This document shows, piece after piece, positions 60,981 to 62,592 of a stretch of DNA of 64,000 nucleotides. Numbering within the stretch: position 1 is the stretch's first letter; each line of letters opens with the position of its first letter. The notes below the pieces were generated by a model. It was not told the origin of the DNA. It made no database searches and saw nothing but the letters and a program-made list of their open reading frames with translations. This DNA comes from a virus (taxonomy: Duplodnaviria; Caudoviricetes): IMG/VR virus record IMGVR_UViG_2863389319_000001, one strand, 5' to 3'. The position numbers and the translations under genes are program-made.

Positions 60981-61673
60981 TCAGTCTTCCAACTCCGGGA
61001 ACGTAATGCGCAGGCCCGGCACTCGTGCTGCGACCCGAGCCGCAATCGCGCGGTGCCACGAGGCAGGGAACTCGGCTTCAGGCTCTGCGTCCTGGTACTC
61101 ATCATCCGAGCGATAGGTGATCAGGCACGGATTCGGATCGTCCTTCAGCTTGGCGACGATGGCGGCCACCTCGTCGTCAGTCTTACTCGACAGTCCCCCA
61201 AGTGAGGCCTGCACGCCGGCCGGAACCGGGTGCATGCCCTGTTCCCAGCGGCGGACGGTGCGCGGCTGAACGTCGAGGCGGTCGGCGAGCCAGTCGCCGG
61301 TCAAACCGAGGTATTCCCGGGTCACCCGGAACTCGGCGGGGCTCATCGGCGGAATCTCGTGCTTCTCGATGATCGCCCACAGATCGATCGCATCCACGAT
61401 CGCCTTGATATCGAGACCACCATCCTCGTCCTGCGGGTAGCCATCGAAGTCCTGATCGGCCTCGTAGTAGGGGCCGATGAAGTCCTCGCCGCAGAGGCTC
61501 ACGTAGGGCGGGAGGGCCGCATCGATGGCCTGCCGATACTCAGTTTCGATGGCGTCGATGTCGTAGCCGTCGGGGCCCTCGGAGCCGAACGCTTCGACGA
61601 TGCTCTGAGCGACGCTGACACTGAAGTGGTCGACCTGGTTGCACCAGGAGCCGTACGGGGTGGTGGTGGGCAT
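60981..61673 (-). CDS. acidic N-terminal domain fused to an Aca2/YdiL(DUF1870)-like HTH; candidate Acr-Aca fusion
   Basis: C-terminal half [38 protein letters not shown]...WHRAIAAR; very acidic N-terminal half. Confidence 0.75.
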
Positions 61674-61706
61674 GGCTGCCTTGCCTTTCAGTGGCGGGGT
61701 GGGTAC

Positions 61707-62210
61707 TCAGAGGGCGGTGATGGCGGCACGGATCCCGGCGACGATGTTCTGCCAGACCTGCTCGCGGCTGGCGATGCGGGACTCGCCGTAGCCGTAGCGG
61801 AAGCGGAGCTTGCCGTCAGCGGCATCGAACCAGACTTTCTCGATGGAGCCGAGGATCTTGCTGGCCTGGGAGTTAGAGATGCCCTCGCCCCGATAGGCGG
61901 CGGCGGAGATGTTGCCGCTGTTGTAGTAAGACAGCTCCAGGCCAGCGAGTTCAGTCCAGTTGTTGATGTAGACACGGCACATGCCGTTCTTCTCCCACAG
62001 CTGGCCGCCGATCGCGGTGAGGGTCTCGACGGAGAAGATGACCTTAGCCTTGCGGAGCAGCTTGGGGAGGTTGATGCGGTAGGCGAGGGACGTGGCGTCG
62101 ATGACCCAGCGGCGGCCGGTCTTGGTGGCGGTGATGGCGCCGCGGCGGCACCAGGTGCGGATGGTGGCGACGGTGACCCCGGCCTGCTTGGCTGCGGCAA
62201 TGGTGTCCAT
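61707..62210 (-). CDS. HTH_17/excisionase-like N-domain plus unknown domain; candidate anti-defence protein
   Basis: AAKQAGVTVATIRTWCRRGAI.ATK.GRRWVID; GGAG RBS. Confidence 0.7.
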   Translation of the reverse strand: MDTIAAAKQAGVTVATIRTWCRRGAITATKTGRRWVIDATSLAYRINLPKLLRKAKVIFSVETLTAIGGQLWEKNGMCRVYINNWTELAGLELSYYNSGNISAAAYRGEGISNSQASKILGSIEKVWFDAADGKLRFRYGYGESRIASREQVWQNIVAGIRAAITAL

Positions 62211-62263
62211 CGTGTTCTCCCCTGCGGGTGGGGTCTGGGCCCGTGCCCTGACCTCATGACTCC

Positions 62264-62292
62264 AATGTAGCGTCCTAATTTAGGACGCGCAA
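62264..62292 (-). promoter_or_regulatory. promoter with inverted-repeat operator for the HTH operon
   Basis: Minus strand TTGCGC-N17-TACATT; GCGTCCTA-ATT-TAGGACGC at 62270-62288. Confidence 0.75.
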
Positions 62293-62386
62293 GCCTGATT
62301 GAACATCAACTCTAATTACCTAGAAGCAATCTGAACTCCTCCGAGTGAAGCGGCCACCATCGGAGCGCCTCCAGTGCTACGGTGAA

Positions 62387-62562
62387 GTCGTCCCCGGGAA
62401 ACCGGGGGTGATCCGTGTGGGGTGTAAGACTTCCATGTGGATGCGCAATCCTCCCCACGCAAGTGGGGGTGACCCGTGCGGGATGTACACCACTCGGGAT
62501 CAGCACTACCTTCCCCACGCAGGTGGGGGTCAGCTTCGCCCCGCGATCGCGGGGATCAGGCC
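62387..62562 (+). CRISPR. orphan type I-E-like CRISPR mini-array (3 repeats, 2 spacers, plus a fourth abutting repeat)
   Basis: 29-nt units GTCGTCCCCGGGAAACCGGGGGTGATCCG (62387), ATCCTCCCCACGCAAGTGGGGGTGACCCG (62448), ACCTTCCCCACGCAGGTGGGGGTCAGCTT (62508), CTTCGCCCCGCGATCGCGGGGATCAGGCC (62534); spacers of 32 and 31 nt. Confidence 0.82.
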
Positions 62563-62592
62563 CCGCTCTCCTTCGGGAGGGCGGGGCCTTTC
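62558..62592 (+). terminator. terminator closing the mini-array transcript
   Basis: AGGCCCCGCTCTCC-TTCG-GGAGGGCGGGGCCTTT. Confidence 0.8.

Follow-up and report, generated by a model that had tools for sequence, protein, structure and literature searches.

A cas-less type I-E array with CreR/CreA-like guides in a Streptomyces-type prophage: a candidate RNA counter-defence locus

Introduction

The locus considered here is situated near the right border of a phage-like element that is integrated in its host and represented by IMG/VR virus record IMGVR_UViG_2863389319_000001 (Duplodnaviria; Caudoviricetes), of which a stretch of 64,000 nucleotides (nt), hereafter "the window", was analysed. It comprises a leftward two-gene operon and, back-to-back with it, a rightward array of repeats similar to those of type I-E CRISPR (clusters of regularly interspaced short palindromic repeats) systems. 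The closest described systems are the Cracr arrays of Liu et al. (bioRxiv 2024.10.29.618823), which include I-E arrays of two or three spacers located on prophages and are recognised by at least nine matches to CreR/CreA next to the protospacer-adjacent motif (PAM). In this work, a given Cracr array carries guides against variants of a single system type, the characterised Salmonella guides are 21–24 nt long, and co-occurrence of Cracrs with anti-CRISPR (Acr) proteins is described; the text names Actinomycetota, not Streptomyces. Previously, Camara-Wilpert et al. (2023, PMC10651486) described RNA anti-CRISPRs in the form of solitary repeat units (Racr), and Shmakov et al. (2023, bioRxiv 10.1101/2023.03.03.530964) reported CreR/CreA-like mini-arrays located between cas3 and cas8e in I-E loci. 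The pairing of RNA anti-CRISPRs with genes for Acr and anti-CRISPR-associated (Aca) proteins is already described in general (PMC10651486; bioRxiv 10.1101/2024.10.29.618823). To an earlier reading of the window made from its letters alone (the "sequence-only reading"), it was not known as described in Streptomyces phages.

The window array is similar to Cracrs in being prophage-borne and cas-less, with three I-E repeat-like units and two guides, the seeds of which reach the nine PAM-proximal matches to CreR/CreA; its guides resemble alleles for variant systems, its last repeat is atypical and a candidate Aca-type gene is located nearby. With the host CreR/CreA-like mini-arrays (loci L191–L216) it shares a -10 box 8–10 nt before the first stem, the order psiR–guide–psiR followed by a terminator, the handle GTGAGCCG or one close to it and the guide seed family TG[CT]GG. 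However, each host mini-array, located within the cas locus, contains a single guide with a target about 100 nt off, while the prophage-borne window unit contains two guides, for which its own genome offers no target. Repeat mimicry on a phage, an aca-like gene nearby and a spacer-less fourth hairpin are reminiscent of Racrs, which are guide-less, unlike the window unit with its three phased repeats, two guides and conserved seed. Full-length guides, heterogeneous repeats with compensated changes, absence of the cognate system in the lysogen and a neighbouring Aca2-like fusion are particular to the window array.

Results

A CRISPR-derived array inserted beside a conserved operon

Three 29-nt repeats of type I-E, in phase with one another, make up the rightward unit (62387–62589) together with two spacers, a fourth hairpin and a terminator (Table 1); the start-to-start distances between repeats are 61 and 60 nt. 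The repeat layout (a T, a 6-bp CCCC-NN/NN-GGGG stem, a tetraloop and an 8-nt handle) is that of type I-E; the stem differences among the repeats are all compensated, and all five hairpins, including the terminator, form in the RNA fold (z = -5.3 against shuffles). The stem type of repeat 1 recurs in psiR1 of the host mini-array L213. The -10-like hexamer, the I-E-like 29-nt repeats and the separate terminator of the sequence-only reading were all recovered, and in the window, for which that reading had stated the absence of cas genes, no match to Cas3, Cas7 or Cas6e was found. The nearest cas locus is about 340 kb from the array, which is flanked by prophage late and lysis genes. Compared with an ordinary type I-E array, the anatomy is present, adjacent cas genes are absent and the spacers are related to each other; there is no leader for adaptation, the -10 box abutting repeat 1, and no adaptation module. 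A consensus scan of the locus for E. coli-type promoters and terminators reported neither, and an Rfam scan gave nothing near any gathering score.

Table 1. Features of the window and of the adjoining part of the integrated element. Positions are those of the window unless the contig (C1) is given.
Feature	Position	Strand	Remarks
Window	C1:1470665-1534664		Part of a 9.57-Mb, four-contig Streptomyces-type genome (G000)
Tyrosine integrase	C1:1440236-1441462		Left of window
DnaB helicase	4089-5543
Protospacer	25342-25373	+	28/32 to host C1 array spacer; mismatches at spacer positions 2, 4, 8, 32; flank AAC
GH25 (glycoside hydrolase family 25) endolysin	58758-59945		Precedes the locus
Family-2 holin	60561-60923		Precedes the locus
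Second gene of operon	60981-61673	-	230 amino acids (aa): acidic N-domain (aa 1-109) and Aca2/YdiL-like helix-turn-helix (HTH; aa 110-~215)
First gene of operon	61707-62210	-	167-aa Xis/BldC/MerR-type winged-HTH protein; HTH_17 28.4 bits vs cut-off 27
Operon promoter TTGCGC-N17-TACATT	62264-62292	-	8-3-8 inverted repeat 62270-62288 in the 17-nt spacer
-10-like hexamer TACGGT	62378-62383	+	8 nt 5' of first repeat stem
Repeat 1 (psiR1)	62387-62415	+	CCCCGG/CCGGGG stem, GAAA loop, 8-nt handle; folds as RNA
Spacer 1 (psiS1)	62416-62447	+	32 nt; seed type TGYGGGRTGTA
Repeat 2 (psiR2)	62448-62476	+	CCCCAC/GTGGGG stem, GCAA loop, handle intact
Spacer 2 (psiS2)	62477-62507	+	31 nt; 9/11 leading nt same as spacer 1
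Repeat 3 (psiR3)	62508-62536	+	Hairpin intact; divergent handle, resembles GTCAGCCG class
Fourth repeat-like hairpin	62534-62562	+	Out of phase; no spacer before it
Hairpin terminator	62558-62589		14-nt arms, 93% complementary

When the whole genome (9.57 Mb, both strands) was scanned for the signature of a CCCC/GGGG 6-bp stem plus the I-E handle, 43 matches were obtained, all located in host arrays or mini-arrays except for repeats 1 and 2 and one palindromic terminator; therefore, the array is CRISPR-derived and does not represent a chance cluster of GC-rich hairpins. Repeats 2 and 3 have the core of a genuine repeat of type I-E, which builds long arrays of 61-nt period in many genomes elsewhere (Frankia, Nonomuraea, Micromonosporaceae, Lactobacillaceae and one Streptomyces).

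The surroundings of the array also occur without it. Homologues of the 167-aa protein encoded by the first operon gene were found in 10 of 166 genus genomes, and none of these loci has the repeats. In the relatives, the promoter with its palindrome is followed within about 50 nt either by a terminator homologous to 62558–62589 or by an unrelated gene; in L007 and L013 this terminator abuts the operon promoter. Since terminator and promoter adjoin where the array is absent, approximately 260 nt (-10 box and array) have been inserted between them in this element and in none of the ten related loci. The locus has no match in phage records (megablast, blastn), and repeat 1 was found neither in metagenomes nor in IMG/VR.

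The two spacers share a seed and have no protospacer

The first 11 nt of the two spacers agree at nine positions, and the remainder agrees at the random level. In a background of 55 actinobacterial I-E arrays, agreement of at least 9/11 occurred in 3 of 7559 pairs of different spacers from the same array and in none of the 598 adjacent pairs (empirical P ~4e-4). Because such agreement is so rare among within-array pairs, the two spacers are not independent.

The sequence-only reading had proposed a search of the spacers against phages, plasmids and the host, and no protospacer came out of it. Both spacers are without one in their own genome, in 50,697 phage records and 72,556 plasmids (where only matches to the repeat part or chance matches with E of 3–10 occurred), in IMG/VR (every sixth base free) and in the 166 genus genomes at up to three mismatches; for spacer 1, the metagenomes of JGI were searched as well, with the same outcome. 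When seed plus PAM was sought in the genome of the host and at its two cas loci, the matches did not exceed chance level; among them was a 10-nt match with ATG inside an HD-domain gene (C3:516050), which was discarded. There was no seed match in 30 Cas3 loci, mostly of the host's own class, or in 129 repeat-bearing loci, and a single IMG/VR match to handle plus seed turned out to be coding sequence.

The seeds belong to a family of regulatory guides found beside cas3

The pattern of handle plus seed was run over 401 genomes of the family, and only two foreign places matched. One of them, in genome G024, is a promoter–psiR–guide–psiR–terminator unit (L191:1530-1710, equivalent to G024:C7 ~45818-45998) situated in the interval that separates the 3' end of cas3 from the cse1 start and running divergently to cse1 (Cse1 profile, 1.1e-68). 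About 100 nt downstream of this unit, just past the cas3 stop codon, there is an AAG-flanked site identical to the guide at 13 of the 14 leading nt, with the single mismatch at position 6. Homologous units are located beside cas3 in at least 17 genus genomes (L191–L216). Guide and AAG-flanked target agree at all 12 informative seed positions in 15 of the 16 readable loci and at 11 of 12 in the sixteenth, and both sequences vary from genome to genome. This co-variation of guide and target is the reason why we recognise the mini-arrays as self-regulatory crRNA-like RNAs (crRNA, CRISPR RNA) of the CreR/CreA type. The site beyond the cas3 stop codon may govern either read-through that reaches cse1 or a small gene lying in antisense to the end of cas3. 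In two species of Actinomadura, a shared unit of two repeats and a 32-nt guide runs divergently to cse1 (L062:7211-7293, i.e., 708-790 on the minus strand; L085:2736-2820) and represents another host CreR-like element.

Both window spacers enter this guide family. Eleven of the 15 distinct guides begin with TG[CT]GG, compared with 0.4% of 753 ordinary spacers, and the window spacers begin likewise. Each of them matches one guide at 10 of 12 informative positions (background P 0.13%), spacer 1 that of L197 and spacer 2 that of G024 (L191), and both share 10 of 11 positions with the G024 guide. If G024 is left out, spacer 1 retains its 10/12 match to L197 and spacer 2 has 9/12 to L194 (background 0.27%); L197 and L194 were found independently of the handle-plus-seed pattern. 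Between the natural targets of G024 and G067 there are differences at seed positions 3 and 7, which are exactly those where the window spacers differ from each other and from these two targets. Since the same seed positions vary in nature, the two spacers have the appearance of additional alleles of a single regulatory site, in agreement with what is described for Cracr guides. Therewith, the part of the sequence-only reading which suggested crRNA-like RNAs has been sustained and sharpened: it is a cas-less I-E array with seeds from a CreR/CreA-like guide family.

The -10 hexamer 8 nt 5' of the stem also occurs in the cas-less phage arrays L026 (Micromonospora) and L137 (IMG/VR), which belong to related phages: their downstream gene is 71% identical, each has three heterogeneous repeats and a holin-like gene adjoins. 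With this common architecture, such units recur in actinobacterial phages. L026 and L137 carry different guides. In actinobacterial genomes and IMG/VR contigs, cas-less promoter–array–terminator units with heterogeneous I-E-like repeats were seen at L026:2150-2330, L137:9330-9520, L141:2540-2760 and L065:3780-3960; in L141, five tightly packed hairpins lie beside a PemK/MazF-like gene. L032 was dropped as a comparable array, both of its repeat-like hairpins being inside an open reading frame.

The repeats represent another class than those of the host

Two cas loci of type I-E, each with arrays, are present in the host (C1 ~1.126–1.135 Mb and C3 ~0.50–0.51 Mb). The comparison of repeats that the sequence-only reading had called for revealed a difference in class: host repeats end in ATGGTCCC and window repeats in GTGAYCCG, and only 15–19 of 29 positions are identical. 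I-E Cas3 is present in 84 of the 166 other genus genomes, with several repeat classes. By hand comparison, repeat 2 is identical at 24 of 29 positions to the repeat class of L204, L208, L211 and L220, two of the five differences forming a compensated stem pair; to the L050 repeat it is identical at 26 of 29. The window repeats come nearest to the Streptomyces class represented by L204, L208, L211 and L220, as well as to psiR repeats of CreR-like elements. A DNA search of the lysogen, whose own repeats are of other classes, gave no homologue of the regulatory mini-array of that class.

The host also possesses three one-spacer mini-arrays with I-E repeats (C2:655967-656056, C3:510541-510630 and C3:511840-511930). 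The two on C3 are located just downstream of the C3 cas3 and have the leader-like motif GGTATTGTCNCAGTTC in common; the sequence upstream of the C2 unit is different.

The leftward operon is a regulatory module of mobile elements

As the sequence-only reading had stated, the lysis cassette is directly followed by two leftward genes that encode an HTH_17 protein and a fusion of an acidic domain to an Aca2/YdiL-like HTH, both profile matches being above their cut-offs, and the promoter with its 8-3-8 inverted repeat is in place. The model of the first protein has a predicted local distance difference test score (pLDDT) of 94.6 and resembles Pukovnik Xis (Z 8.2, 49 aligned residues, root-mean-square deviation 1.4); for the fold of its conserved C-terminal alpha/beta domain there was no clear match (Foldseek, VIA). 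Its family has at least 237 members, and the 120 relatives listed, 58–70% identical, come from Streptomyces, Kitasatospora and Streptosporangium, plasmids included. The closest one is on a ParAB-bearing 81-kb Streptomyces contig (L181:7001-10603), where the 167-aa homologue is followed by a 190-aa gene of homologue size and then by a DEAD/ResIII/HA helicase. The latter arrangement suggests that the window operon is a truncated plasmid- or telomere-type module.

The N-domain of the second protein (109 aa) is strongly acidic, with an isoelectric point (pI) of 4.05 and 23 acidic against 3 basic residues. All eight relatives of this domain are proteins of 171–194 aa, in which it is fused to a different C-terminal tail, DNA-binding in appearance; only the window protein has the Aca2-like domain. 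This domain scores 25.8 bits with Aca2_YdiL (PF08965; cut-off 23.8; aa 125–206) and 1.7e-13 with phrog_955, and the four best sequence matches in PDB are all Aca2, so that at the level of family the assignment is real. In comparison with Aca2 of Pectobacterium phage ZF40 (PDB 7vjo, 7b5j), the HTH and dimerisation region can be aligned (aa 110–201 to 6–98, E 0.002, a marginal score), and the gene is likewise the last of an operon with a promoter palindrome; unlike Aca2, the protein is fused to the 109-aa acidic domain, and the operon is conserved in relatives that have no Aca2 domain. The N-domain itself is modelled with pLDDT 76–94 over residues 10–110 and has no significant structural neighbour (Foldseek, VIA; best Z 4.3) and no assignment in Pfam, PHROG, NCBIfam or PADLOC, the last of which gave matches at the HTH level only. 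Of the profile check suggested by the sequence-only reading, the two HTH assignments hold, and in the collections searched the N-domain shows neither homology to Acr proteins nor an Acr fold.

All relatives have a palindrome in the promoter irrespective of the nature of the second gene, with different palindromes in L006–L014, and the same layout of promoter and palindrome occurs in relatives without the Aca2 domain. Because the palindrome is kept regardless of the second gene, and proteins of the type of the first one bind promoter spacers, binding of the operator by the first protein is no less likely than by the Aca2-like domain. The operon is a conserved regulatory module of mobile elements, and the palindrome within the promoter spacer probably mediates its autoregulation. 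An anti-CRISPR role of the operon is unsupported because of this conservation: of the Acr/Aca part of the sequence-only reading, the Aca2-like domain stands, and the Acr role, for a module kept in 10 of 166 genomes without the array, is left without support.

Spacers of the host match the element

A spacer of the C1 array (C1:1119658-1120075) matches C1:1448138-1448169 at 32 of 32 positions, with the flank ACC. The matched site, 22.5 kb to the left of the window, is at the start of an early-region gene in this integrated element; a weaker match to another C1 array spacer lies within the window (protospacer in Table 1). Because spacers of the C1 array match the element, the host I-E system has met this phage lineage. 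The persistence of the element may be due to escape in PAM and seed, to an inactive system or to an anti-CRISPR function, and the matches do not discriminate among these routes.

A 30/32 match between C3:516916-516947 and window 49914–49945 was rejected as a spacer, there being no repeat on its far side. It connects the tape-measure region of the prophage with the stretch directly upstream of the C3 array's first repeat; after the prophage copy there come an unusual T-run and an ATG on the opposite strand.

Setting of the locus in the element

Left of the window, the integrase is followed by early phage genes: a Gp3-like recombination directionality factor, an exonuclease, a single-stranded DNA-binding protein and a C5 methylase. 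Since integrase and early genes are located there, the element is probably about 95 kb in size. No attachment-site repeats or transfer RNA gene were found at its ends, which were not located exactly. Directly past the array terminator, on the minus strand (62625–63629), there is a gene for a 334-aa protein with an XRE-type HTH (aa 60–124) and a large C-terminal domain without family match; this gene is absent from the related loci. At ~9895–9930 the window contains a long perfect palindrome with the core CCCCGAAATTTCGGGG and symmetric GTGGCCC flanks. Read from either strand, it has the score of an I-E-like hairpin, and it probably represents a terminator acting in both directions.

Discussion

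We suggest, with a probability of about 0.55, that the array encodes phage-borne crRNA-like regulatory RNAs of the Cracr type and serves for counter-defence at the RNA level. This reading is carried by the CRISPR-derived anatomy of the array, by its insertion and the absence of cas genes and by the common seed of its two spacers, which falls within a family of co-varying regulatory guides.

The array would be transcribed rightward from the promoter abutting the first repeat, and Cas6e of a type I-E system would cut the transcript at the repeat hairpins, giving two RNAs that could be loaded into Cascade, each with an 8-nt 5' handle, a guide of 31–32 nt and a 3' hairpin. These RNAs may compete with immune crRNAs for the Cas proteins, and may park Cascade on the AAG-flanked regulatory site just past the cas3 stop codon. 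With Cascade parked there, cas genes or a linked safeguard gene could be repressed more tightly, resulting in weaker CRISPR immunity; two alleles of the regulatory site would be covered by the two guides. Because the present lysogen has no I-E system of the cognate class, the array probably serves the infection of other strains.

Several observations weigh against this interpretation. We infer transcription, processing by Cas6e, loading into Cascade and repression or competition in strains of the cognate class. Its guides have the full length of 31–32 nt instead of 21–24 nt, and its handles differ from the host repeats at four of eight positions (hand comparison). The lysogen has neither an I-E system of this class nor a seed-plus-PAM site. 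The nearest natural target of each spacer leaves one seed mismatch, at position 3 or 7, and no target with a perfect seed match to either spacer was found among the sampled genomes. The match to G024 is partly circular, as this genome was found with the pattern derived from the spacers. Finally, in the 166 genus genomes, the metagenomes and IMG/VR, the array is known as a single copy.

If the array produced ordinary crRNAs, they might borrow the Cascade and Cas3 of a host I-E system against competing phages and plasmids and thus ensure superinfection exclusion. The canonical lengths of the spacers (32 and 31 nt) and the intact 5' handle and 3' hairpin flanking both of them would be in line with such a weapon, and viral mini-arrays of this kind are described in earlier work. 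However, neither spacer has a protospacer in any of the collections searched, phages, plasmids, IMG/VR and host among them; a common seed is almost never seen among independent acquisitions, and here it matches regulatory guides; nor does the array have a leader or adaptation module. We consider this role unlikely. Accordingly, of the two functions offered by the sequence-only reading, inhibition or reprogramming of Cascade is the favoured one, and its redirection against competitors is left without a protospacer. The guides could also be irrelevant, if the hairpins act as a decoy that soaks up Cas6e or Cas7 into aberrant complexes, as in Racrs. Four different repeat-like hairpins which hold their stems by compensated changes, one of them spacer-less, fit well with this scheme, for which RacrIE1 and RacrIE2 are validated precedents, and racr genes do co-locate with acr genes. 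A decoy, however, explains neither the conserved 11-nt seed nor why this seed belongs to the CreR-like guide family, and Racrs are solitary repeats, not a phased array; the probability of a pure decoy seems to us decidedly low.

The array may also be an inert relic, i.e., a recombined fragment of a host CreR-like or CRISPR locus that decays without function in the phage. Its presence in this element only, while the ten related loci have none, its heterogeneous repeats, the divergent last handle and a host without the cognate system are what would be expected in this case. Decay does not agree with the compensation of every stem difference, with an own -10 element at the distance typical for the family and an own terminator, with the retention of two guide alleles instead of one or with similar promoter–array–terminator units in other actinobacterial phages, and we find a relic rather improbable. 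The odds of the leftward operon being an acr–aca pair were judged separately from these readings of the array. In such a pair, the acidic N-domain or the first gene product would inhibit I-E Cascade, and the Aca2-like HTH would repress the operon through the inverted repeat at 62270–62288. The above-threshold Aca2_YdiL match with Aca2 as the four best PDB sequences, the strong acidity of the N-domain (pI 4.05), the Acr–Aca fusions known beside Cracr arrays (AcrIF24) and the host spacers targeting this element speak for it. The layout of promoter and palindrome, however, persists in relatives with a different second gene or without the Aca2 domain, the N-domain is fused there to another DNA-binding tail and finds no fold match (best Z 4.3), and the first gene belongs to a conserved family of at least 237 members that precedes a DEAD/HA helicase on a plasmid-like contig, which is unlike typical Acrs. 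An acr–aca function of the operon thus appears distinctly improbable. It is more doubtful still that the N-domain–Aca2 fusion is a new type I-E anti-CRISPR protein working together with the Cracr-like array, in the same way as AcrIF24 works with I-F Cracrs; if true, this would represent a combined protein-plus-RNA counter-defence island in Streptomyces phages and would explain why the element persists despite a perfect I-E spacer of the host.

Returning to the Cracr-type reading, the array adds an example from a Streptomyces prophage to the recently described viral crRNA-like anti-CRISPR RNAs, and the mini-arrays beside cas3 document a conserved, co-varying CreR/CreA-like pair of guide and target in one Streptomyces type I-E class; both are directly testable. 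The apparent mismatch between the cognate class and the lysogen's own systems, together with the host spacers, provides a concrete system for addressing the breadth of RNA mimics. These data are relevant to phage–host dynamics in antibiotic-producing actinomycetes, and to the use of endogenous I-E systems or phages as genetic tools in Streptomyces.

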